Of a stretch of DNA of 32,000 bases, positions 4,096 to 24,920 are shown piece after piece. Source of the stretch: an archaeon. Lineage in GTDB: Archaea; Iainarchaeota; Iainarchaeia; Iainarchaeales; JANQMZ01. Below the pieces are notes generated by a model that did no database searches, was not told the DNA's origin, and saw only the letters and a list, made by a program, of their open reading frames with translations. Numbering within the stretch: the stretch's first letter is position 1; each line of letters starts with the position of its first letter. A program made the position numbers and the translations under genes. The stretch is from positions 821,279-853,278 of the forward strand of contig JANQMZ010000007.1 in NCBI GenBank assembly GCA_028279805.1, in the 5' to 3' direction.

Positions 4096-4110
4096 ATATT
4101 TGTTTTACTT
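4096..4110. repeat. Left copy of the 15-bp direct repeat ATATTTGTTTTACTT bracketing the 5-gene island
   Basis: Identical 15-mer at 9234..9248. The extended alignment 4091..4113 vs 9229..9251 is 20/23 identical. This copy spans the methyltransferase stop codon. Confidence 0.5.
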
Positions 4111-5220
4111 ATTCAAATGAACTATTCTTTCAATTTTAATTCCCTCTTGTTTGGAATTATTTAAAACTTTTTTGGAAACAGGAATTTTGTCAGTCATCAT
4201 ACCACTCACTTTAAAACCGCAGTCTTTTGCAAGACTACAAAACAGTTTTCCCATATTAATTATTTGTGGACCAGTCACTCTCTTATTTTTAACATCTCCC
4301 ACAACAACAAATGCATTTCCTCCGGGTTTCATTACTCTTTTTAATTCAACTAAAGTTTCTTTCATAAATTGCGAATAAACATTTAAAGAACCCGACTCCA
4401 TTAGTTTTGATTTAACTTCTTTGTAATCATATCCCAAGAACCAATGCCGAAGCCAATTATCATAAGCATATGTTTGTATATTGAGGTATGGGGGAGAAAA
4501 AAACGCCAAATCAACTGTGCAATCTTTTAATGAAATATCTCTTGAATCGCTATTTAAAGCACGTCCTTTATATTTTAAGTTGTTGTTAATTAATAGCTCT
4601 TCTCCTCTTTGCTTAAGTGCTTCAATAATATCTCTTCTTGGTCTTTTTAATCCATGCTTTTTTGCATATTTTTTGACATAGGTTGGAGACATAGAATAGG
4701 AATGGGAACAACGAAGCGAAAAGCTTTTTTGTGAATTTCCGTGTAAAAGCCCCAACGCAACCCCTTTTATAAAATTAGCTGATTTTGAGTTGTCTTCCTT
4801 TAAAATAGTCTTTAGTTCAATTAGTCTTTTCAAAGTGGTGGGATTGTAAAAAACTTTTACTTTGGGATCCACATTTTTTATTGATTTTATATAGCCCATT
4901 TTGTTTTCAATCTGGGTTAATTTTTTTTTATAGCTTGACAATTTTATGGGGTTCAATTTAGCATATGTTAAAATATGGGCTTCCGGAGAAACATCATTGC
5001 CTATAGATTTTCTATCAAGTAATGCTGCTTCTAAGGGCGCAGTTCCCTTTCCCGAAAAAATATCCAGGAAAACATCTCCCTTATTTGAATATTTTTCTAT
5101 AAAATATCTTGGCATGAGAGGCGGGAAAGAGCATATTCTAGAACACATTTTGTGTAAAGGATTTATGTCTCTCTTCTTCGATTTCCAGAAACTATTTTCT
5201 TCAAGTTTTATATCATACAT
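4105..5220 (-). CDS. DNA methyltransferase (N6-adenine or N4-cytosine type, SPPY catalytic motif)
   Basis: 371 aa. AdoMet motif I and flanks: PRYFIEKYSNKGDVFLDIFSGKGTAPLEAALLDRKSIGNDVSPEA near the N-terminus. Motif IV: DLAFFSPPY about 185 aa later, followed by LKRVMKPGGNAFVVVGD. Confidence 0.8.
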   Translation of the reverse strand: MYDIKLEENSFWKSKKRDINPLHKMCSRICSFPPLMPRYFIEKYSNKGDVFLDIFSGKGTAPLEAALLDRKSIGNDVSPEAHILTYAKLNPIKLSSYKKKLTQIENKMGYIKSIKNVDPKVKVFYNPTTLKRLIELKTILKEDNSKSANFIKGVALGLLHGNSQKSFSLRCSHSYSMSPTYVKKYAKKHGLKRPRRDIIEALKQRGEELLINNNLKYKGRALNSDSRDISLKDCTVDLAFFSPPYLNIQTYAYDNWLRHWFLGYDYKEVKSKLMESGSLNVYSQFMKETLVELKRVMKPGGNAFVVVGDVKNKRVTGPQIINMGKLFCSLAKDCGFKVSGMMTDKIPVSKKVLNNSKQEGIKIERIVHLNK

Positions 5221-5232
5221 TTTTTCGCCACT

Positions 5233-6225
5233 CTAAAATTTAATAGAAAGTTTCTTGGCTAAAGTTTTCATTTCTTTCATCAACTTGGTTATTATCTTTT
5301 TTTTCCTTTTATTATTTTTTATTTCATCTATTCTTTGTCTGCTAATGGCCTCGATTTTGTCTAAAAAATTCTGTGCTTCACGAATAAAAACATCTGACAT
5401 CTCTGGTTTATTGTTAAAAACTACCTCTTTCGCTTTTCCAAGAGTCCATTTTCCTTCAAAATATTTCTTTTGGGCTTTTTTATCTTTAAGAACTACTCGT
5501 GTCAGATCTCTAACATCCCTAGTTTCAAGATTATCTTCAGTTATTTTTTTAATTAATTTTTTATCTAATTTTTTATCTTTTTTTTTCGCTTTTAAATAGT
5601 CAGTTGATTTATTAATCTCATAATATTTGGTAAATTCTTTAGGATTAGAAATTTTGTTTTTTACCATAAAGTCAAACGTTTTTATGTAGTCCTGAATCTG
5701 TTTTTCAGGATAACGACTAACTTCTACTAATTCCTTAAAAGAAGCGCCTTCTCGTTTTCTTCTCTTAAACCAGACTGCAAGTTCATATGGCTCCCAATCT
5801 TTCTTTTGAATTATATGAACTCTTCCAAGTAAATAATCGATATCTGGCTGGGAAATTTTTTCTTTTATTACTTGGCATGGCACATTGGACCATTTTGTTT
5901 TTTCACTAGAAGTTTTAGCTTTTCTGTCAAGCTCCTTTAAAATACATAACCTAGTATTTCCCTCTAGCACTTTATTTTTGTAAACAATTAGTGGCTCATT
6001 AATTGCACCATCTGTTTCTATCACTTCCTTTAGTTTTCTTGTTGGTTCCGAATGTTTTTCCCAAAATAATTCTTCAATTTTTTTTTCAGTCAATGCACCT
6101 TTTTCTCTTTCAAGAATAGAAATTAATCTAGGATTCTCTTGGTAAAATTTTAGTTTCGATAACGGAACTTCTTTTATTTCTGTTTCAACTTTTTTATTTT
6201 TTCCAATTACAAGATATGATGACAT
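5233..6225 (-). CDS. ParB/Srx-fold (ParB N-terminal-like) protein, paralogue 2
   Basis: 330 aa. VPLSKLKFYQENPR ... INEPLIVYKNKVLEGNTRLCILKEL resembles ParB-like nuclease/NTPase domain boxes. Shares ENPR and EGNTRL with the 8062..9087 protein. The C-terminal half is lysine-rich and helical. Confidence 0.65.
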   Translation of the reverse strand: MSSYLVIGKNKKVETEIKEVPLSKLKFYQENPRLISILEREKGALTEKKIEELFWEKHSEPTRKLKEVIETDGAINEPLIVYKNKVLEGNTRLCILKELDRKAKTSSEKTKWSNVPCQVIKEKISQPDIDYLLGRVHIIQKKDWEPYELAVWFKRRKREGASFKELVEVSRYPEKQIQDYIKTFDFMVKNKISNPKEFTKYYEINKSTDYLKAKKKDKKLDKKLIKKITEDNLETRDVRDLTRVVLKDKKAQKKYFEGKWTLGKAKEVVFNNKPEMSDVFIREAQNFLDKIEAISRQRIDEIKNNKRKKKIITKLMKEMKTLAKKLSIKF

Positions 6226-6228
6226 GGT

Positions 6229-7653
6229 TTACCCCAGAAGTTCAACCAACTCTTCTTTAGATAATAAGTTTCCTTCTTTATAACTCGTAATGTCCCCCTG
6301 AATGTATTTTGCTATTTCTTCCTTCCTTTTGAGTAAATAATCAACATATTCATCAATTGTATCTTTTGCGACAAGTAAGTGAATAAAACAGTTTTTTTTT
6401 TGTGAAATTCTATGAATCCTATCCTGAGATTGCATAAAATCAACCAAATTAAAATTTCTATCCAAGTATATGGCGTTGCTTGCAGCAGTTAATGTTAGGC
6501 CCTCTCTAGCTGCAGCGGGGTTTGCCAGCAAAATTTTATATTCCGGGTAATTTTGAAATTTTTTAACTGAGGCATTTCTTTTTTCCATAGTCATTTTTCC
6601 ATAAATCATCACAGGATTAAATTTAGAATATCTTTTTCTAAGTATTGAAATGTTTTCAATGAAAGAGGTCCAAATAATAACTTTTTGTTTTTTCTTTGTC
6701 AAATTTAAAATTAATTGATCAAGAGCTTTAAATTTAGCAGGCACTTCATCATAAGCTTTGTCAATCAGATAAGGATTGCTTGTTATTTGAATCAATCTTA
6801 AAAGTTTTACAAAAATTTCTTCTGCTTTTAAAATAATTTCATTTCCGTTCAAGTCTTTTATTTCCAAAAACAATTTTTCTTTTAATCTTTTGTACATTTC
6901 CTTTTGATCTTTTTCTAAAATAACAGGAACGTTTATTATTTTCTTGCTAGGCAAATCCAATTCAGGAAGTTCTCCTTTGGTTCTACGCAACGATATTTTT
7001 TCAATTTTTTCTTTTAAGACTTTTAGTTTGCTTTGGTTAACTTCTTTTTTCAAATCAAAATCAAACTCTTTTTTAAATTTTTTAAAATCCTTTCCGAACG
7101 TTTTTCCATCATCCAAGAAAAAAAACTGCGCCCACAAGTCTATGGGTTTATTTGCTATGGGAGTTCCGCTAAGTATTATTTTTTTTCCCGGTAAGTTGGC
7201 TAATTTAAACAATTGAAGCGTTATTTTAGCTTCTGGATTTTTTATTTTGTGAGATTCATCAAGAACAAGAGCCATTTTTCTAATTTTAAGTAACTCTTCA
7301 ATCATTTTATTTTCTCTTATAAGAGATTCATAGCCAATAATATAAAAATAAGAAAATCCAAGCCCTTTCCTTTGCCTGGTTTTTCTGTTCCCGGTTATTT
7401 CAGTACAAGAGAGATTGCTATGTTTTTCTATTTCCTCTAACCAATTTTTAATTAATGTTTTTTTACATACAACTATTGCGCCATTTAGTTTTTTTTCTGC
7501 AAAGTTTTTACAAAGTGCATCAATAACAATTTTTGTTTTTCCTAGTCCCTGTTCATCAAAAAGAGATACAACATCCTCTTTTTCAACGAAATCAATTGCA
7601 ATGCTTTGATGCGCAAAAGGATTTGTTTTAATTTTAAATTTATTTTTTTTCAT
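6229..7653 (-). CDS. SNF2-family SF2 ATPase/translocase (minimal, 474 aa)
   Basis: Motifs I DEQGLGKT, Ia VVCKKTLIKNW, II LVLDESHKIKN, III LSGTPIANKPIDLW, V/VI AAREGLTLTAASNAIYLDRNFN...QSQDRIHRISQKK. Confidence 0.9.
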   Translation of the reverse strand: MKKNKFKIKTNPFAHQSIAIDFVEKEDVVSLFDEQGLGKTKIVIDALCKNFAEKKLNGAIVVCKKTLIKNWLEEIEKHSNLSCTEITGNRKTRQRKGLGFSYFYIIGYESLIRENKMIEELLKIRKMALVLDESHKIKNPEAKITLQLFKLANLPGKKIILSGTPIANKPIDLWAQFFFLDDGKTFGKDFKKFKKEFDFDLKKEVNQSKLKVLKEKIEKISLRRTKGELPELDLPSKKIINVPVILEKDQKEMYKRLKEKLFLEIKDLNGNEIILKAEEIFVKLLRLIQITSNPYLIDKAYDEVPAKFKALDQLILNLTKKKQKVIIWTSFIENISILRKRYSKFNPVMIYGKMTMEKRNASVKKFQNYPEYKILLANPAAAREGLTLTAASNAIYLDRNFNLVDFMQSQDRIHRISQKKNCFIHLLVAKDTIDEYVDYLLKRKEEIAKYIQGDITSYKEGNLLSKEELVELLG

Positions 7654-8062
7654 TTGGTAGCAACCTGTCTGGAATTTTTAATATGTCTATGTTTTTTCTA
7701 TCAAGCAAACCCTGCTGGCTTAATATTTTTTCCAATTTTTTTTCACAAGATAATGGTATGCCCACTATTAGCCTTATTGATTCACTGTCATTAATTTTTG
7801 ATTTTGAAAAGTCCAAAAGCTGCTCTTTTGTTCTTTTACTTGAAAGATCTTTTGAGGATTTAGCTTCCCCAATTATTAAATTTCCAGACTCGGGATCAAC
7901 ACCTACCACATCTGGTCGATGTCTAACTATTTTTGGAGGCATGTATAATTTCAAATCTGAAACGTCTTTTGGGTTGTCATCAAAGCAAACTACGTGATAT
8001 CCCTCATTTCTTATCTTTTTTGCGAGAAGGGTTGCTATAATTCTGTGAGTATTAGACGGCAT
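7640..8062 (-). CDS. Small PD-(D/E)xK-type nuclease-like protein
   Basis: 140 aa. HRPDVVGVDPESGNLIIGEAKSS fits the PD...(D/E)xK restriction-endonuclease-fold core (D in PDVVG, ExK in GEAK). Overlaps the SNF2 start by 14 nt and the upstream ParB-like stop by 1 nt. Confidence 0.55.
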   Translation of the reverse strand: MPSNTHRIIATLLAKKIRNEGYHVVCFDDNPKDVSDLKLYMPPKIVRHRPDVVGVDPESGNLIIGEAKSSKDLSSKRTKEQLLDFSKSKINDSESIRLIVGIPLSCEKKLEKILSQQGLLDRKNIDILKIPDRLLPNEKK

Positions 8063-9087
8063 TATTCATCATCCAGAATTGAATTTATTTCCTCTTTAAG
8101 TTCATTTAACAGTTTTTTTTTTGCATTATTTTGGCCTGACTTTATTTCTTCCTCTTCTTTATTTGACATTTTTCTTAATCCAATTAAAACCATAGATATC
8201 CGATCAAACAATGTGGAAGAATACTTAGGTTCAATAGTGCTTAGTTTTTCAATTGCAATGTCATAATTTCTTTCTAGAAATAACTTTCTACAATCAGAAT
8301 TCTCAAAAATTTTATCCAATTTTCTAACATCCCGAACATTAAGGAATTTGTCAATTCCAACCCAATCACAAAAATCAGCGTCTGTAAAATTCAAATTTTG
8401 CATTTGCTGTTTTAAATTTTTGTTCTTTAAATATTCCACAAAATACGTAAACTTATGTACGAAATCCTTCTTGTTTCCATATTTTTTCTTGAATTGTGTC
8501 GACATTAATTTGAATGCATCAATATCTTGCTTAATGCTACTTTTGTTTAATTTTGTCCTTAAAGAAAGGGTCTCCAAAGAAATTTTGTGGTCCTCATGTA
8601 AAGCATACAAATATTTGGCTTTTTCATAAGTGTCCCATTCATTTGTTCCATTCAAATGGGCAGTCAATCTAATGAAATCTTTGCCTTCGTCATCTAAATC
8701 AGCGGAAAACACTACACATTTTATTTTTTTGAAATTTTTTTCTTCAGGATATTCTCCACTTAACTGTTTATAAATAAGCAATCTGGTGTTTCCTTCAATT
8801 ACAATATAGTTTTTTTTTGGAAGTTGTTGTACCCATATATCGTACAACGCTCCCTTGTTATCTTTGATTGAAGCTTTTAGGTCATAGTAATAAGAATTTC
8901 TTTTTAACGCATATGCTATTTGACCCTGGGTCATTTTTTCTTTTTCTTCCTCAAAAGTGTCTTTAGCTAGAGATATTCTTGGATTTTCAACGTCAAACAT
9001 AATTTTTTCTATTTCAATTTCTTGTCTTTTGACAGGGGTTTTTCTTCTATTAATAATGACGCTGTCGGGATAAACAGGCGAGTTCAT
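8062..9087 (-). CDS. ParB/Srx-fold (ParB N-terminal-like) protein, paralogue 1; first gene of the operon
   Basis: 341 aa. IEKIMFDVENPR ... ALYDIWVQQLPKKNYIVIEGNTRLLIYKQL. Same ENPR/EGNTRL boxes as the 5233..6225 protein. Confidence 0.65.
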   Translation of the reverse strand: MNSPVYPDSVIINRRKTPVKRQEIEIEKIMFDVENPRISLAKDTFEEEKEKMTQGQIAYALKRNSYYYDLKASIKDNKGALYDIWVQQLPKKNYIVIEGNTRLLIYKQLSGEYPEEKNFKKIKCVVFSADLDDEGKDFIRLTAHLNGTNEWDTYEKAKYLYALHEDHKISLETLSLRTKLNKSSIKQDIDAFKLMSTQFKKKYGNKKDFVHKFTYFVEYLKNKNLKQQMQNLNFTDADFCDWVGIDKFLNVRDVRKLDKIFENSDCRKLFLERNYDIAIEKLSTIEPKYSSTLFDRISMVLIGLRKMSNKEEEEIKSGQNNAKKKLLNELKEEINSILDDE

Positions 9088-9225
9088 TTTATTTCACATT
9101 TTTAAATTTTTTTTTGTATTGTTATAATTATATAATTAAAAACAAAATTAATTTAACACTTTACTGTGAACTATGAAATCGTATATGCTTATTTTTTGTC
9201 AAAAGTTTAGCGAAATATTTTTTTT

Positions 9226-13192: not shown

Positions 13193-13266
13193 GGGCACAT
13201 AGCTCAGTCTGGTAGAGTGGTAGTCTTATACACTATCGGTCGGGGGTTCAAATCCTCCTGTGCCCA
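13193..13266 (+). tRNA. tRNA-Ile, anticodon UAU
   Basis: Hand-folded cloverleaf. Acceptor stem GGGCACA/TGTGCCC is perfect. D arm GCTC-AGTCTGGTA-GAGT. Anticodon arm GTAGT-CTTATAC-ACTAT, with TAT at positions 34-36. T arm GGGGG-TTCAAAT-CCTCC. Discriminator A; no encoded CCA. Confidence 0.9.
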
Positions 13267-19694: not shown

Positions 19695-21167
19695 TCAGTT
19701 CAAAGAGCTTATTGCAATTTTTTGTTTTGAATTTTTTCTGATTTGAGTTAAAATTGCAAGCATGTTCCATTCTGTTAAAAGTTTTGACCTTGTTTTTATA
19801 ACAGTTTTATTTTCATAATCGGTTTTTTCTAAAACATTTATTCCAAAAAAGTTTTCAGTCAAAAAATTTGATTCATTTTTGTTTTCAAGCCAGTGTACTA
19901 CAAAGCCTTTGTTTTTTTCACTTGGAACAACGATTTCAACATACAAATAGGTTTGAGGTTTTAATTCAAGCTTTAATTTTTCTTCAAGTTCGTTTGTTCT
20001 GAATTCTTTTCCGGGAACAATTCTGTAATAAGCCAGCCATTCAAGTTTGTAAGATTCTTTTATTTCACCAAACTCTGAAACAATTGAATCAATTTTTTTC
20101 TTTTCAGCATTTTTTGGCAAGCCGTAAATGAATAAACCGTTTCCTTCTCCGTCCAAAGGATTTTTTGTAAACTCTTTTGAAAAATTAAAAACAGGGGTGC
20201 CAAAACCAAAGTTAAAAATTGTTCCGAAAAAAGCAGGCAAAAACAGTAAAAAAAGCAAACCAGCAGCCAAATTAAAAGGCTTTTTTACATTTTTTGTTCC
20301 TTGTTTCCATAAAAAATATCCAAGCCCTGTAACCATAATCAAAGGAATTGTAAAATTGTCAGAGAGCGAAAAAACATTATACAAAGGACCCAGAGCAAGG
20401 GGAATAACTCCGATAAAAAGCATGGGGCTAAAATCTTTCAGTGTTTTGTTGCTTGTTTGTAAAAAATTTTTAGAAAAATAAATAGCCAAAAATAGTGCGG
20501 TTACAAGAAAAACAGTTGAACCTGCTCCCCCGTCAATTATTACTCCGGCAAGCCCGAACATTCCGATGTTAAAAACAAAAAAATCAAACAATTCAATTTT
20601 TTTAAGCATTGAATTAATATGAATTAATCCAAAAACAATTACAAGCACAACAATAACAAGCAAAATTATCGCCCAAATTTCCGGGTTTTGTTGTATTTCA
20701 TAAAGCGGTTGGCCTGAATCAAAGGAAGAAAAGTTTTGTCCAAGAATTTGTGTAACAAAGTATATTGTTCCTTTTGTTAAATGGTTATGATACAAGGATG
20801 TTGCTTCCCAGTTTGTCATATTTTCATTTATTGTTGCAATGGGGTAATTGGAATTTAATTCATTTGCAAAAAAACCTGTCTGAACAAGCCCTAATGTAAG
20901 CCCTATAATTCCGGTTAAAATCATTGCAGTAAAATATCTGAATGCTTTTTTTTCATCAATTTTTTTCCCAGTTTTAACAACCATCAGGGAAATTATTCCT
21001 GAAAATGTTAATGCACTCAAAAAAAGCAGTGTTTTTATTTCAGCATTCCCGCCCAAAAATGCCTGAATCACGCCGTGAAAAAAATTCATCGCAGTTGAAT
21101 TAAGCAAAATGATTACAATTATTGCAATATTCGCCAGAACAAATGCTGTTAATTTTTTTTGATTCAT
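19695..21167 (-). CDS. Polytopic membrane protein with a C-terminal soluble domain, function unknown
   Basis: 490 aa with about 9-10 hydrophobic spans, then a ~150 aa hydrophilic C-terminus. 4 nt downstream of the 21172..23463 gene. Confidence 0.55.
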   Translation of the reverse strand: MNQKKLTAFVLANIAIIVIILLNSTAMNFFHGVIQAFLGGNAEIKTLLFLSALTFSGIISLMVVKTGKKIDEKKAFRYFTAMILTGIIGLTLGLVQTGFFANELNSNYPIATINENMTNWEATSLYHNHLTKGTIYFVTQILGQNFSSFDSGQPLYEIQQNPEIWAIILLVIVVLVIVFGLIHINSMLKKIELFDFFVFNIGMFGLAGVIIDGGAGSTVFLVTALFLAIYFSKNFLQTSNKTLKDFSPMLFIGVIPLALGPLYNVFSLSDNFTIPLIMVTGLGYFLWKQGTKNVKKPFNLAAGLLFLLFLPAFFGTIFNFGFGTPVFNFSKEFTKNPLDGEGNGLFIYGLPKNAEKKKIDSIVSEFGEIKESYKLEWLAYYRIVPGKEFRTNELEEKLKLELKPQTYLYVEIVVPSEKNKGFVVHWLENKNESNFLTENFFGINVLEKTDYENKTVIKTRSKLLTEWNMLAILTQIRKNSKQKIAISSLN

Positions 21168-21171
21168 TTAA

Positions 21172-23463
21172 TTAACTCCTTAAATGCACGTAAAATGAAC
21201 CGTTTGAATAAATTTTATCAAGCTGTTCAAATTCTATTTTTTCAGGCTGCAAATTGCTTCCGACAGGCTGGCTTTCAATAAAAATTGACCTGTTTACCAC
21301 ATATTTTATTCCGTGTTTTTTTAGTATTACATTTTTTCCTGTCTGCAGAAATTCAAAGCTTTCATTAATTTTTTCAGAATCCGCATATTCAACAGCCAAA
21401 TCGCTTAAAATTTTTCTTTCGGTTAAAAAAACAACTGAATGTCCCAAAGCCGGCTCAACCAAAAAATTTGCTTCGGTTGAAGTGTTTTCTTTTAAAAAAG
21501 AAGCCATTTCAATTTCGCTTGCAGGCGTTGAAAACATTGTCATCGCAGTAAAAGTTGTTATTAATCCTAATATTAATGCAAGGCTTAAAGCATGCTCTGC
21601 AAATTTTTGTTTGAAAATTTTTTCAGGCAATGTTTTTGCAATAAACAATGCAAACAATAAAGCTGTTGCAATATTTACCCTGTAACTTATAAATGTCTGT
21701 ACAAGTGCAAGAATTAAAACCGTTGCAAGAATTTTTTTTGATTCATGATTCAGTTTAATTTTTTTTGTCAAAAACATTGGCATTAAAACAATTAATGAAA
21801 ACAGTGACATTGCAAGAGTGTCAAGTATTACTCCTGGCCACGGCATTCCGAAATTGTAACCCCATACGCTTGCATTTGCCTGTGTTACAAAACCATGCCT
21901 TAATATTACCTGGCTGAATGAAATTAAAACCAGAACAGATGCGATCAAAACCTGTTTCAGAACGGGAACAATTTTTTTAAATCCGAGCAATACAACTCCT
22001 ATGATTCCGAAAAAAGCGAGAAGCAATGGCTGCATGAATCCTGCAAATGCCAAAAGAATTCCAGGAGTAATTTTATTGTTTTCTTTTAAAAAAACAGCCA
22101 GTGCCAGCAACATAAAAGAAAAACTGATTGTGTGCCTTATGTTAAACATTAAGTCTCCGAAAATAAAACCGCTCATGAAAAAAAGAGCTGTTATAAGATA
22201 AGCAATTTTTGTTTCAATTTTTAATTCTTTTAACAATAAAAGCATTGAAACCAGAATCATTGTTCCTGCTAACAGCGTTATAATGGGAAAAATGTTGCTG
22301 CCGGGCAACCCTGTTAAAACCTGTAAAGCTGCGTTTATGAAAAAGTATCCTGAAACATATCCAAAAGGCTTTGTTCCTAATTCTGAAAAAGGGTCAATTA
22401 CGGGAATTTCATGTGTTTGGGCTATTAATGTTGCCTGTCTTTCATAAAAGGATGTCCAAAGGCTTACATAGTTTTCAGTAAACAAATGAAAAAATAATGC
22501 GCTGAACAAAATAAATCCGATTAACAGAATTTCAAAATAGCTTAATTTTCTTATTTTTATTTTATTTTTCTGAAAATTTTTTTTAAAATAAAAAGCCAAT
22601 CCTAGTGTAAAAAAGACTGTTATTAAAGCCATTAATTCTGCTGAAAAAATATTGGCATTTAACAAAATAAAAGGAATTACTCCCATGAACCCGAAAAATG
22701 ACGCAATGGAATAAGCGGTTCTTTCAAGCAGATTTTTTTTTGCAAAAACAAACAAAAACAAAACACTTAGAAGTCCTGCAATAATGGCAAGGCTTAAAAC
22801 AAGCGGAATATGAAAAGTTTCTTTTTTTTGAACAATTGTTTCCTCACTTTGATTCCCAAAAACAATTTTTACATTGTTTTCTCCGGGTTGAAGGGAAAGT
22901 TTTTCAGAAAATTCCTGATTTTTTTTTGAAGGAAAAACACTGTGATCTTTTTTTCCGTTTACAAGAATTGTAGCAGGTTCATATTTTTGCAAGTCATTGT
23001 TTTCAATTTTGAAAACAATTTCATTTTCGTTTGCTGAAACAATTGAAATTTTTGGATTTTGCTGTTCCAAAAAATCGGTTTTTTGAATGTGGTAAAAAAC
23101 CCTGTCATTTCCAAGATTAATAAAAACAATGTTGTCTCCCGATTCAAGTTCTTCAGAGGAAAAGCATTCATTTAATGTTTGTTTTTGTGAAACATCTATT
23201 TTTTTTTCAATTAATATTTTTTTGTTTACAGTTACATTTAATTTTTCAATTTTTTTCCGGTCAAAATTGTTTGGCTCCAGGTTTAGATTAAAGCAGGCAT
23301 CATTTTCTGCAATTTTTTTGTCAAAAGATTTTAACTGCATTTCAGTAAACGCAGGTTTTGTTGCAAGGGAATGCCAGTAACCTGTTGTAAAAACAGCTAA
23401 AAACAATATTAAAAAAATTCCGGCAAATATTTTGAATTCCTGTGAAAAACGCATTTTTCTCAC
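21172..23463 (-). CDS. Large polytopic membrane protein, GT-C-like (PMT/ArnT-type glycosyltransferase fold candidate) with an N-terminal extracellular beta-rich region
   Basis: 763 aa. Signal-anchor, ~200 aa hydrophilic region, more than 12 TM spans, and a ~110 aa C-terminal soluble domain resembling that of the 23508..24920 protein. Confidence 0.45.
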   Translation of the reverse strand: MRKMRFSQEFKIFAGIFLILFLAVFTTGYWHSLATKPAFTEMQLKSFDKKIAENDACFNLNLEPNNFDRKKIEKLNVTVNKKILIEKKIDVSQKQTLNECFSSEELESGDNIVFINLGNDRVFYHIQKTDFLEQQNPKISIVSANENEIVFKIENNDLQKYEPATILVNGKKDHSVFPSKKNQEFSEKLSLQPGENNVKIVFGNQSEETIVQKKETFHIPLVLSLAIIAGLLSVLFLFVFAKKNLLERTAYSIASFFGFMGVIPFILLNANIFSAELMALITVFFTLGLAFYFKKNFQKNKIKIRKLSYFEILLIGFILFSALFFHLFTENYVSLWTSFYERQATLIAQTHEIPVIDPFSELGTKPFGYVSGYFFINAALQVLTGLPGSNIFPIITLLAGTMILVSMLLLLKELKIETKIAYLITALFFMSGFIFGDLMFNIRHTISFSFMLLALAVFLKENNKITPGILLAFAGFMQPLLLAFFGIIGVVLLGFKKIVPVLKQVLIASVLVLISFSQVILRHGFVTQANASVWGYNFGMPWPGVILDTLAMSLFSLIVLMPMFLTKKIKLNHESKKILATVLILALVQTFISYRVNIATALLFALFIAKTLPEKIFKQKFAEHALSLALILGLITTFTAMTMFSTPASEIEMASFLKENTSTEANFLVEPALGHSVVFLTERKILSDLAVEYADSEKINESFEFLQTGKNVILKKHGIKYVVNRSIFIESQPVGSNLQPEKIEFEQLDKIYSNGSFYVHLRS

Positions 23464-23507
23464 TTGAATTAAAATACCCTGAAAGCATTTTTAATGGCTT
23501 TATTGTT

Positions 23508-24920
23508 TCAATCAGACCTGTTTAAAACATAAAAATAGTTGTTTTCATGGGATAAAACCAGTTTAAGCTGTTCTTTTTCAATTTTTTCAGTATTGCAATT
23601 AAATATCTGGCTTGAAAGGGGGGAAATATGGAGTATTTGAGCATCAAATTTTTTCATTGTTTCTGCAAAAGAACAGTTTTGAAAAGCATTAAATGTTTCC
23701 GAAAGCCTTTGGTTTGCTTCAGGCACTGACTCCATAAAAGCTCCTATAACCACTTTTTTTTGTGTAACATACGGAATTGTGTAAGAGCCTATAAAATCGC
23801 TCAAAACTTTTTCCCCTTCAATTTCCTTTAAGGCTTCCAATGCTTTAATGTTTTCATCTGAAAAATAACTCGGCTCAAAAACAAATGAATGCCCTATTAC
23901 CAGAAGCCAGAAAAATCCGAAAGACAATAATCCCAGGCCAAGCCTTGTTGAAATTCTCGGCTTTAATTCTTTTATGCCCAGCACAAGTATCAGCGGAATG
24001 AATGCAAACAAATACACACCGGTTCTCATTGCAAAAATGCCCGGCTGAAAAAGTGAATGAATTAATATACCAACAAAAAAAGGCAGGGTAAACAGAAAAT
24101 ATTTTTTTTTGTAAATCAAAAATAATGCCAAAATTAGTGCTGCAAAAAATAAAACTGAAAAAATTTCATGCAGTTGCATAAACTGAATCCACGGATTAAT
24201 TATTCTTTGGGTTGCCAGCAAAGAATCAAGCCTTGGAAAAATCCAAACAAGCGAAATCAATGATGTTATTACCGGCAATGCAATTTGTTTTATTGTTATT
24301 TCTTTTTTCCATAAAAAATAAGCTGAAAAAACCAGAAACAACAACCCAAATGTTAAGAAAGAACGGTAATGAAACAATGCAAAAGCTGAAAAAATTAAGG
24401 CAAGTTTTACAAAATCTTTTTTTAACAAAAAATAAAGGCTTACTGAAAAAAACATTAATCCAAGTGTTTCAGGAATAGCATTTAATAATCGCCTGAACAG
24501 CCACGGCATCATAACGGTTAAAGCTGAAACAAAATATGCATGTTCTTTTGGCAAAAACATTAAAGCTGTTTTAAATGAAAAAAATGCAATTATTGCAAAT
24601 GCCAGCATTCCCAAAAGTTTCCAGACACTCAGCAAAGGCAAACCGGTAACAAGTGCAATGCCTGAACTTAAAACATCAAACAATGGTGCGTAAATTTTTT
24701 GCAATCCCAGACCAAAAGCATCTGTTTCCAATCCTATAAATCCCGTTTCCATAATTGATTCTGTTGCTCTTGCCCTTTCAAACTGATCACTTATAAAAAA
24801 ATGTTCCTGTATTGCAAATCCTAAAACTATTATCAAGAATGATAAAATTAGCATTGCCGGAAACGCTTTTTCTTTTTTCATCCTATTCTTTATGATTTGA
24901 GTATTTAAAGCCTTTTTCAA
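23508..24920 (-). CDS. Polytopic membrane protein, GT-C-like glycosyltransferase candidate (family 39/83-like)
   Basis: 470 aa. The first loop SDQFERARATESIMETG resembles the D/E-x-x-R...A...G loop-1 motif of ArnT/PMT-type enzymes. Multiple TM spans and a C-terminal soluble domain. Confidence 0.45.
   Translation of the reverse strand: MKKALNTQIIKNRMKKEKAFPAMLILSFLIIVLGFAIQEHFFISDQFERARATESIMETGFIGLETDAFGLGLQKIYAPLFDVLSSGIALVTGLPLLSVWKLLGMLAFAIIAFFSFKTALMFLPKEHAYFVSALTVMMPWLFRRLLNAIPETLGLMFFSVSLYFLLKKDFVKLALIFSAFALFHYRSFLTFGLLFLVFSAYFLWKKEITIKQIALPVITSLISLVWIFPRLDSLLATQRIINPWIQFMQLHEIFSVLFFAALILALFLIYKKKYFLFTLPFFVGILIHSLFQPGIFAMRTGVYLFAFIPLILVLGIKELKPRISTRLGLGLLSFGFFWLLVIGHSFVFEPSYFSDENIKALEALKEIEGEKVLSDFIGSYTIPYVTQKKVVIGAFMESVPEANQRLSETFNAFQNCSFAETMKKFDAQILHISPLSSQIFNCNTEKIEKEQLKLVLSHENNYFYVLNRSD

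Follow-up and report, generated by a model that had tools for sequence, protein, structure and literature searches.

A 32,000-nucleotide stretch of the genome of an Iainarchaeota archaeon (contig JANQMZ010000007.1, positions 821,279 to 853,278; hereafter, the window) encompasses a compact operon of five genes, here denoted A to E, that encode, in this order, a ParB-like protein, a stand-alone PD-(D/E)xK nuclease, a minimal SNF2-family ATPase/translocase, a second ParB-like protein and an N6/N4 DNA methyltransferase (MTase). Comparison with related loci indicates that the conserved unit is the four-gene block A-B-C-D and that E is a lineage-specific replacement for a radical S-adenosylmethionine (SAM) enzyme that accompanies this block in most other genomes. 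The operon is best explained as a rare, MTase-bearing variant of a widespread bacterial cassette that is apparently undescribed and unnamed, and we consider it probable, although far from assured, that the locus is an unnamed candidate defense system resembling restriction-modification (R-M).

All five genes are located on the minus strand, namely, A at positions 8062–9087 of the window (341 amino acids (aa)), B at 7640–8062 (140 aa), C at 6229–7653 (474 aa), D at 5233–6225 (330 aa) and E at 4105–5220 (371 aa). The start of B falls on the stop of A (1-nt overlap), B and C overlap by 14 nt, and gaps of 3 nt and 12 nt separate C from D and D from E, respectively; with a single strand and such tight junctions, A to E look like one operon. 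All five open reading frames (ORFs) are intact, and the public annotation of the source contig calls the same five genes. The prior description of the locus, made from the letters of the sequence and its ORFs without database searches (hereafter, the sequence-only reading), had reported five minus-strand genes with junctions of -1, -14, +3 and +12 nt, which the ORF list bears out, and all the motifs it quoted were located in the five proteins at the residues given below.

A conserved four-gene core and its SAM-dependent partner

We detected 202 relatives of A among 185,579 GTDB species genomes and retrieved 80 of these loci for reading, all of which are bacterial and come from many phyla. A phmmer search of the ORFs of the collected loci with the window proteins detected A, D, C and B in 82, 79, 74 and 42 loci, respectively; B, which diverges rapidly, could be located by its position as an ORF in 69 loci. 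The genes always follow the order A-B-C-D, which is seen in almost all loci of sufficient length, and because this order recurs in about 70 independent loci, the arrangement is far beyond chance. Conservation of the neighborhood across genomes thus holds for the four-gene block but not for the five-gene system that had been proposed from the sequence alone, which was found in this genome only. Nor did the sequence-only view of the operon as part of a poorly charted archaeal defense repertoire survive the comparison: all 80 retrieved loci being bacterial, the archaeal copy appears to be an import that says little about any distinct archaeal repertoire, and the best reading is that the cassette reached the archaeon from bacteria by horizontal transfer.

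The cassette is also carried by mobile elements, namely, a few plasmids and prophage-like contigs. Relatives of A are present on seven large plasmids, with five of the matches covering at least 80% of the protein, and the two plasmid loci that we read, one rhizobial and one from Roseomonas (L084 and L085 in our numbering of the loci), combine A, B and C with genes for a GHKL ATPase and the radical-SAM enzyme; D was also detected in L084, and L085 contains three A-like ORFs and no match to D. The complete system was found on 7 IMG/VR contigs, out of 2.9 million viral contigs, and the Sphaerochaeta copy has insertion sequence (IS) elements on its flanks.

Clustering of the proteins encoded next to the core yielded one dominant family (48 members, 380–550 aa), the gene for which is located directly after D or directly before A, at a median distance of 18 nt from the core. 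These proteins share an invariant GCx3Cx2C motif and a B12-binding-like N-terminal domain; 32 of 56 match the radical-SAM domain PF04055 and 9 of 56 the B12-binding domain, mostly below the curated cut-offs, and PGAP labels one member as 'radical SAM protein'. We found no PADLOC model and no close solved or curated relative for this family, and comparison of its profile with PDB returned weak RimO-type matches only, from which no functional assignment was made. C-methylating radical-SAM enzymes of class B typically have such a B12-type architecture.

Partners were counted at the 60 loci in which the core is complete and flanked on either side by 2.5 kb or more of sequence. The radical-SAM gene is the only partner in 49 of these, a DNA MTase within 2.5 kb is the only one in 9, including the window, and the radical-SAM gene and an adjacent DNA MTase are both present in 2, such that none of the 60 loci lacks both (Fisher's exact test, p = 3.7e-9, for loci that are not phylogenetically independent). 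Given this either/or pattern, a SAM-dependent partner is obligatory and interchangeable.

In the tree of the SNF2 proteins, the window is placed inside a clade of A-B-C-D-radical SAM loci (50–54% identity to L011, L008, L006, L005, L091, L002 and L010), the loci with Dam/DpnII genes form a separate clade nested among the radical-SAM types, and L108 (45% identity) branches outside the clade of the window; this pattern implies that radical SAM was exchanged for an MTase three times or more, independently. The gene for E in the window follows that for D on the same strand after 12 nt, in the very slot that the radical-SAM gene occupies in the sister loci (-3 to +21 nt); a homolog of E beside A-B-C-D was found in none of the other loci searched. 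In the Dam/DpnII clade, the core splits a DpnII R-M operon that consists of genes for a Dam-like MTase, a DpnA-like N6_N4 MTase and the DpnII endonuclease (1.8e-108): in L041 (8291–14729), and likewise in L048, L053, L056 and L064, the core sits between the second MTase and the endonuclease, with overlapping junctions. Dam-associated relatives of this clade are L014, L021, L062 and L067, and L108 and L109 possess a divergent DpnA-like N6_N4 MTase without a radical-SAM gene.

Some loci contain additional genes. In 20 loci, the radical-SAM gene forms a pair with a gene for a GHKL ATPase, a protein similar to HSP90, MutL and the BbrUII/HgiDII restriction enzymes, and in some loci, a DGQHR/DpdB-like protein joins this pair. 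The resulting trio of GHKL ATPase, radical-SAM enzyme and DGQHR protein (PADLOC DpdB, 1.4e-16) is encoded convergently to the core on the two plasmids (L084, 12961–17238; L085, 13014–17249) and, by analogy, looks like a modification module of the DpdA/DpdB kind in which the radical-SAM enzyme would replace the tRNA-guanine transglycosylase (TGT). Other accessories include a domain of ~226 aa (denoted 'cl2') that in some proteins is joined to a sigma-70 module with similarity to MzaA and, in the subfamily closest to the window, sigma-70-like proteins of ~900 aa encoded upstream of A. Large sigma-70-related proteins are encoded beside the core in L091 (76–2739), on the contig P0014 and in L028 (13868–16207); some of these, at 887–933 aa, contain Sigma70_r4 together with RNA_pol_A_CTD (L091) or Sigma70_r1_1 (P0014), and another is a fusion of cl2 with the MzaA-like sigma-70 module (2e-31). 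Such a sigma-70-like accessory gene, often present in the bacterial relatives, does not accompany the archaeal copy. A PADLOC scan of the bacterial homologs of the core proteins together with the radical-SAM, GHKL, cl2, DGQHR and sigma-like proteins returned only DpdB, for the DGQHR protein.

Predicted proteins of the operon

The five proteins were scanned against Pfam, NCBIfam, PHROGs and PADLOC 2.0 (models from 2023), and A, B and D matched no Pfam or NCBIfam family at threshold. The ParB-like protein A can be divided into an N-terminal ParB/Srx domain with the NPR and EGNTR boxes (ENPR, aa 34–37; EGNTRL, aa 98–103), a helix-turn-helix (HTH)-like middle part and a helical C-terminal domain. 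Among its 86 homologs in the protein collection, many match PF02195, and the invariant residues are N35, R37, E98, G99, N100, R102, H144, G147, W151 and R255. An AlphaFold2 model of A, built with 34 homologs as input, has a predicted local distance difference test (pLDDT) score of 90.6, and the Foldseek search with this model retrieved Noc, ParB-CTP, KorB, Spo0J and pNOB8 ParB with E-values from 2.5e-6 to 1e-3 (7OL9, 7NFU, 7BNR, 6SDK, 8QA9 and 1VZ0, all at probability 1.00 and over ~250 columns), the matches spanning the N-terminal ParB domain and the HTH; the profile of A compared with PDB points to Noc as well (2e-3). Judged by the model, A is predicted to belong to the canonical ParB/Noc/KorB clamp branch of the ParB/Srx superfamily, rather than to the DndB/DUF262/DpdB types with which the sequence-only reading had aligned the two ParB-like proteins.

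Protein D, with the same motifs (ENPR, aa 30–33; EGNTRL, aa 88–93), is, by sequence comparison, a full-length paralog of A: the two window proteins are 25% identical over 206 aa (BLASTP, 6e-9), and hhalign aligns the two families over 316 columns (probability 100, E = 1.2e-55). The invariant residues of D are N31, P32 and R33; E88, G89, N90 and R92; and H137 and W144, such that the NPR, EGNxR and H..G...W boxes are common to both families, with NPR and EGNxR invariant in both. Like the canonical clamps, A and D have a Box I-like NPR and a Box II-like GNxR motif, but where the clamps have GERR, A and D have GNTR, that is, the Box II glutamate is replaced, and hydrolysis may therefore differ from that in ParB-type clamps. 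The helical C-terminal domain of A differs from the clamps as well, and A and D are encoded together with a translocase, a nuclease and a modifying enzyme. No ParA was found in 21 kb around the operon, and a search for parS in the intergenic region upstream of A yielded AT-rich imperfect palindromes only and no parS-like inverted repeat.

In the small protein B, the core motifs of a PD-(D/E)xK nuclease are RPDVVGV (aa 49–55) and IGEAKS (aa 64–69). Four residues (D51, E66, A67 and Q81) do not vary across 68 loci, and six more (S3, H6, P50, G65, K68 and D72) reach 90% conservation or above; D51, E66 and K68 are invariant or nearly so in a second set of 60 sequences as well. The AlphaFold2 model of B (pLDDT 85.7) has the secondary-structure order H-E-(H)-E-E-H-E-H-E, and Foldseek searches with it retrieved only folds of PD-(D/E)xK nucleases, namely, XisH, YaeQ, BstEII, MunI, XPF, MUS81 and Upx from PDB and, from the viral models of BFVD, MmcB-like, Hjc-like, VRR-NUC and Cas4 proteins with E-values down to 1e-4. 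From the conserved residues and the modeled fold, B is predicted to be a nuclease of the PD-(D/E)xK superfamily. A single-sequence search for homologs of B gave 2 proteins, so the family was gathered by profile search instead, and it consists of stand-alone proteins of ~135 aa, almost all of 130–145 aa, that form 387 clusters at 90% identity and 1018 at 50%. One member carries PF18743 (AHJR-like); comparison of the family profile with PDB sequences was uninformative (Hjc at E = 1.1). The protein P0319 (432 aa) contains a B-type nuclease domain at its C-terminus (residues 318–431); we considered it as an A-B fusion and rejected this possibility, the N-terminal part being unrelated to A.

The ATPase C contains GLGKT (residues 36–40), DESH (132–135), SGTP (162–165) and QSQDRIHRISQ (408–418), and matches SNF2-rel_dom (2.3e-39), Helicase_C (4.1e-17) and ResIII (2.9e-7) in Pfam, the closest solved relative being the Sulfolobus SNF2/Rad54 core (1Z63, 2.3e-46 over residues 29–453). 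With all its SNF2 motifs intact, C is predicted to be a minimal SNF2 ATPase. Its similarity to ZorD, DpdE and DrmD covers the ATPase core only and is 10- to 20-fold below the curated NCBIfam cut-offs. The phage relatives of C turned out to be ordinary replication-type SNF2 helicases (~30% identity) and were set aside.

The MTase E contains motif I (FSGKGT, 55–60) and, after it, motif IV (SPPY, 242–245), and ~180 residues between these motifs that could be a target recognition domain. E matches N6_N4_Mtase in Pfam (2.4e-19) in two stretches and in permuted order, and the PADLOC model MTase_II (PDLC03325) over the full length (2.7e-51); no Mod-specific model in PADLOC or NCBIfam was matched. The nearest solved relatives, for the motif I region only, are the N4-cytosine MTases 8S9M/8S9N, M.PvuII, M.MboIIA and CcrM, and given that these include both N4-cytosine and N6-adenine enzymes and align over motif I only, E may modify either base.

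E-like MTases also occur outside the cassette. On the metagenome contig L086 (6489–15132), a gene for an E-like MTase (48% identity) is followed directly by one for a lone A/D-like ParB protein, in an island that contains a tyrosine integrase, an AbiEii-like nucleotidyltransferase, RadC and Type I HsdR/HsdM and that lacks B and C, which suggests a separate pairing of the E-type MTase family with the A/D-type ParB family. Similarly, a lone distant relative of A/D is accompanied by an E-like MTase (1e-31) on the IMG/VR contig L101 (9947–13216) and is overlapped by a Dam-like gene on the IMG/VR contigs L103 (9141–11140) and L104 (7905–9904).

Relation to named systems

The set of five genes is represented by no Pfam, NCBIfam, PADLOC or PHROGs model, the matches being limited to generic SNF2 and MTase ones and to partial ones for the ParB N-terminal domain, and it is not described in the literature searched (open-access papers and bioRxiv). 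The earlier inability to assign the genes to a named system is thus matched by PADLOC 2.0, NCBIfam, Pfam and the literature, and domain scans of the operon and its flanks agree with the listed absences (HsdS, DUF1998/PLD, PglZ/BrxC, DndACDE/Ssp and TGT) as well as with the layout that had been noted, in which the translocase, the nuclease and the modification enzyme are products of separate genes.

In Type III/ISP R-M systems (Mod and Res), a SAM-dependent MTase, an SF2 ATPase that moves on double-stranded DNA and a PD-(D/E)xK nuclease are found together, as in the operon, and the logic proposed below, in which self is marked and the unmarked is cut, would be alike. Unlike Res, C is of the SNF2 type (2.3e-39 as compared with 2.9e-7 for ResIII) and nuclease-free, the nuclease being the separate protein B; furthermore, two ParB-like proteins are added, and most members of the cassette have a radical-SAM enzyme, not an MTase. 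The HsdS, HsdR and HsdM domains of Type I R-M are absent from the five genes and their neighbors.

The Dpd system shares with the cassette a ParB-like NTPase, DpdB, that aids DNA modification and a SNF2-like helicase, DpdE; the ParB-like ATPase DpdB is reported to be required for DNA modification (PMC10164549). C matches the PADLOC DpdE models at 1.5e-44, whereas its NCBIfam DpdE score is 25 bits against a cut-off of 500. No DpdA/TGT, DpdC or preQ0 pathway was found at the locus, and A and D are of the ParB/Noc type, not the DGQHR type; some relatives of the cassette, as indicated above, do have a DpdB-like DGQHR gene beside the radical SAM-GHKL pair. The likeness to class 1 DISARM (DrmA/B/C, the SNF2 protein DrmD and DrmMI) consists in the combination of a SNF2 helicase and an adenine/N4-type MTase in one locus, but neither the operon nor its flanks encode DrmA, DrmB (DUF1998) or DrmC (phospholipase D, PLD), and C scores 35.9 bits with DrmD against an NCBIfam cut-off of 610. 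With Zorya, the similarity is confined to the core of ZorD (profile positions 467–884 of 908; NCBIfam, 83.7 bits against 1500), and ZorA/ZorB genes were not found; likewise, the five proteins and the flanks gave no matches to BREX, Dnd or Ssp components (PglZ and BrxC; DndACDE; SspABCD).

The only defense-library matches of A involve its N-terminal ParB-like domain, which resembles PD-Lambda-5_A (1.9e-6, profile positions 4–89 of 449) and PDC-M38A of the PADLOC candidate PDC-M38 (3e-12), the matches spanning ~90–210 N-terminal residues in models of 449–715 residues. PD-lambda-5, from the P2 hotspot of Escherichia coli, is a validated two-gene system that its authors describe as a compact combination of R-M and abortive infection with a methyltransferase (Vassallo et al. 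2022; PMC9519451). It has in common with the operon the pairing of a ParB-like N-terminal domain with a methyltransferase but differs in architecture, having two genes and no SNF2 protein, small nuclease or second ParB-like protein, and PD-Lambda-5_B has no match among the five proteins. PDC-M38 is not mentioned in the open-access papers or bioRxiv preprints searched. Matches to A in phage genomes are weak only (26.6% identity over residues 23–194) and are found in Escherichia phage Wphi (31855–32439) and P2-like Peduovirus (246–830) (H1–H4), in proteins annotated as gp98 or hypothetical; these matches sit at the end of the P2-like genomes, which may be the P2 defense hotspot of PD-lambda-5.

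Domains of the ParB superfamily, SNF2 and N6/N4 MTases have been repeatedly linked in conflict systems (PMC5512222). The MTase-SNF2 dyad exemplified by DarB of phage P1 and the ParB-methylase fusions of phages and conjugative elements are giant or fused proteins of mobile elements directed at host restriction, whereas the operon consists of five separate genes, including one for a nuclease, and the cassette is mostly chromosomal and usually has a radical-SAM enzyme. For a ParB-superfamily protein of Menshen (NsnABC), a DNA-sensing role in defense has been proposed (PMC12065111). Menshen, GmrSD, SspE and DndB belong to the DUF262/DGQHR branch, with ABC ATPases or HNH effectors, and show no sequence or architectural match to A–D. 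Several other leads from the literature were dismissed: Ophion is a different set (radical SAM, PHP and phosphoribosyltransferase); a reappraisal of Dnd, the one paper among those searched in which ParB, SNF2 and radical SAM occur together, does not describe this gene set; and the same applies to papers on BREX-related systems, thaumarchaeal mobile elements, sponges and ProPhylo, in which the set is not described.

Possible function, alternatives and genomic setting

The bacterial loci are often found beside known defense genes, an association consistent with the role proposed in the sequence-only reading. The flanks of L002 encode a BglII R-M system, MT-A70, an SLFN/NB-ARC NTPase, Fic and GIY-YIG; the contig P0010 carries genes for MazG-like and SLFN-like helicase proteins; and Cas4-like and Fic genes are located downstream of the core in L108 and L109. 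Among 144 flank proteins drawn at random from 63 loci, we observed strong matches to GajA, MkoA, HEC-05, a defense reverse transcriptase, PDC-S01 and mad3 (three members each), several further PDC candidates and integrases, along with ordinary metabolic genes; the defense association that emerges from this sample, which has no matched control, is suggestive only.

Under the R-M-like reading, the SAM-dependent enzyme, E in the archaeon, would mark the host's own DNA. The pair of A and D would bind DNA, probably as an NTP-gated heterodimer or clamp in the manner of ParB, Noc and KorB, and would either read the mark or be blocked by it; on unmarked DNA, the pair would recruit or license the SNF2 motor C and the nuclease B, which together would amount to the Res subunit of a Type III/ISP system divided over two genes, with cleavage coupled to translocation. 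That E, a predicted MTase, modifies DNA is certain in kind. For the radical-SAM enzyme, modification of DNA is inferred from the repeated exchange with an MTase and from the B12-type architecture. A bolder proposal, which we regard as possible but put forward with clear reservations, is that A-B-C-D with the radical-SAM enzyme represents a new class of R-M-like immunity, in which the B12-type radical-SAM enzyme would install a novel DNA mark by radical chemistry (for example, C-methylation of a base or sugar) and the hetero-pair of NTP-gated ParB-like clamps would slide along DNA, read this mark and license the SNF2 motor and the nuclease on unmarked DNA. If this proposal is true, the archaeal swap to E would be a natural experiment, according to which the mark matters and its chemistry does not.

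Several observations weigh against the R-M-like reading. The relatives of the radical-SAM enzyme are only weak (RimO/MiaB and B12-radical-SAM proteins), and this homology implies no DNA substrate. MTases at the loci were scored with three MTase hidden Markov models only, and the SNF2 trees are neighbor-joining trees without support values. Some of the MTase links are loose, L108 being divergent with a 258-nt gap and L014 and L021 convergent, and could reflect clustering in defense islands. There is no recognizable cognate specificity link between E and A–D, and E-like MTases accompany lone ParB-like proteins in L086 and L101, where B and C are missing, so that D and E could be a separate ParB-MTase couple. 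The flank survey is a random sample with no matched control, and the operon in the window is itself flanked by housekeeping genes, among which no second defense gene was found.

Alternatively, the cassette would be a modification-independent defense or surveillance nuclease, with clamps that load on foreign DNA (ends, plasmids or replication intermediates) and bring the motor and the nuclease to it; the radical-SAM enzyme or MTase would then be an unrelated effector or regulator or a co-located gene, and E, an orphan MTase or a Type II remnant. The core is indeed conserved without E, the radical-SAM enzyme has no homology link to DNA, the GHKL, sigma-70-like and DpdB-like accessories vary by subtype as sensors or regulators do, and several of the MTase neighbors are on the opposite strand. 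A dispensable or coincidental partner, however, hardly explains why every one of the 60 loci has a radical-SAM enzyme or an MTase, why E shares the strand of D and follows it after 12 nt in the radical-SAM slot, and why the core is spliced into DpnII operons with overlapping junctions, and we consider this explanation unlikely. Quite unlikely, in our view, is that the genes form an offensive or establishment module of mobile elements, for example, one for anti-restriction by fast self-modification, as a multi-gene counterpart of the DarB dyad and the ParB-MTase fusions. The presence of A on seven IMG/VR contigs and seven large plasmids, the pairs of a lone ParB-like protein and an MTase on viral contigs (L101, L103/L104) and in the integrase island of L086, and the IS elements around the Sphaerochaeta copy would fit such a module, but mobile carriage is typical of defense systems, too. 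Moreover, the core is usually joined by a radical-SAM enzyme instead of an MTase; it always includes a conserved nuclease that looks active; the full system is found on 7 of 2.9 million viral contigs as compared with ~200 of 185,579 species genomes; and the window copy lies among housekeeping genes, with no integrase and with host-like GC content at third codon positions (GC3).

A role in housekeeping DNA maintenance, that is, segregation, nucleoid organization or repair, would agree with the structural neighbors of A (ParB, Noc, KorB and Spo0J), all of which are partition or nucleoid proteins, with the weak resemblance of B to Holliday-junction resolvases and with the housekeeping flanks of the window. 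We nevertheless find this role very improbable in view of the lack of a ParA partner and of a parS-like repeat, the patchy distribution across phyla (~200 of 185,579 species) with transfer between domains, the linkage of the cassette to radical-SAM and MTase, R-M and defense genes, and the finding that the operon proteins have no close homologs in relatives of the host, all the clusters being singletons.

If the R-M-like reading is right, a widespread multi-gene immune system, present in ~200 species-level genomes and with a signature nuclease family of ~1000 clusters at 50% identity, has been missed by all current annotation resources. Two of its features would be without precedent in characterized defense, namely, a paralogous ParB/Noc/KorB-type pair outside chromosome biology and a radical-SAM enzyme in the position of an R-M methyltransferase. 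The repeated exchange of radical SAM for MTase translates into a testable hypothesis, that the radical-SAM enzyme modifies DNA, and the window locus is the simplest version for study, because standard methylome sequencing can read its predicted mark. It is, in addition, a record of the transfer of a defense-like cassette from bacteria to an archaeon.

The intergenic stretch upstream of A (9088–9225, minus strand) is the candidate promoter region of the operon and contains a TATA-like AT-rich element, TTATATAATTATAA, at ~9126–9141, about 40–55 nt before the ATG of A, which, as judged from its sequence, is a possible archaeal promoter. A scan for sigma-70 promoters and terminators, which is not relevant to archaea, gave background-level signals only. 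With a GC content of 0.303, compared with 0.338 elsewhere in the window, the operon is somewhat richer in AT, and its GC3 of 0.21–0.27 overlaps that of the host genes (0.25–0.31). On one flank, the operon is adjoined by archaeal housekeeping genes for a RIO kinase, thermosome, leucyl-tRNA synthetase (LeuRS), Alba and Sec61-beta, and on the other flank, by genes for Trm112, an AsnC-type regulator, an HMGL-like synthase, aconitase and isopropylmalate dehydrogenase. The archaeal origin of the host, deduced earlier from the sequence alone, is evident from the genes for thermosome, Alba, Sec61-beta, tRNA-splicing endonuclease and geranylgeranyl reductase. That reading also took the host for one with a small genome, a view against which the 853-kb length of the source contig can be set.

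Every housekeeping or operon protein that we looked up is a singleton at 90% identity among 15 billion proteins, which indicates that the host lineage is poorly sampled. Elsewhere in the window, a tRNA-Ile gene with the anticodon TAT is located at 13193–13266; isoleucine tRNAs with UAU are uncommon among archaea, where a few lineages with small genomes are known to have them, and the gene might thus help to place the host. The products of three consecutive large ORFs on the minus strand (19695–24920; 490, 763 and 470 aa) matched nothing in Pfam at 1e-5.

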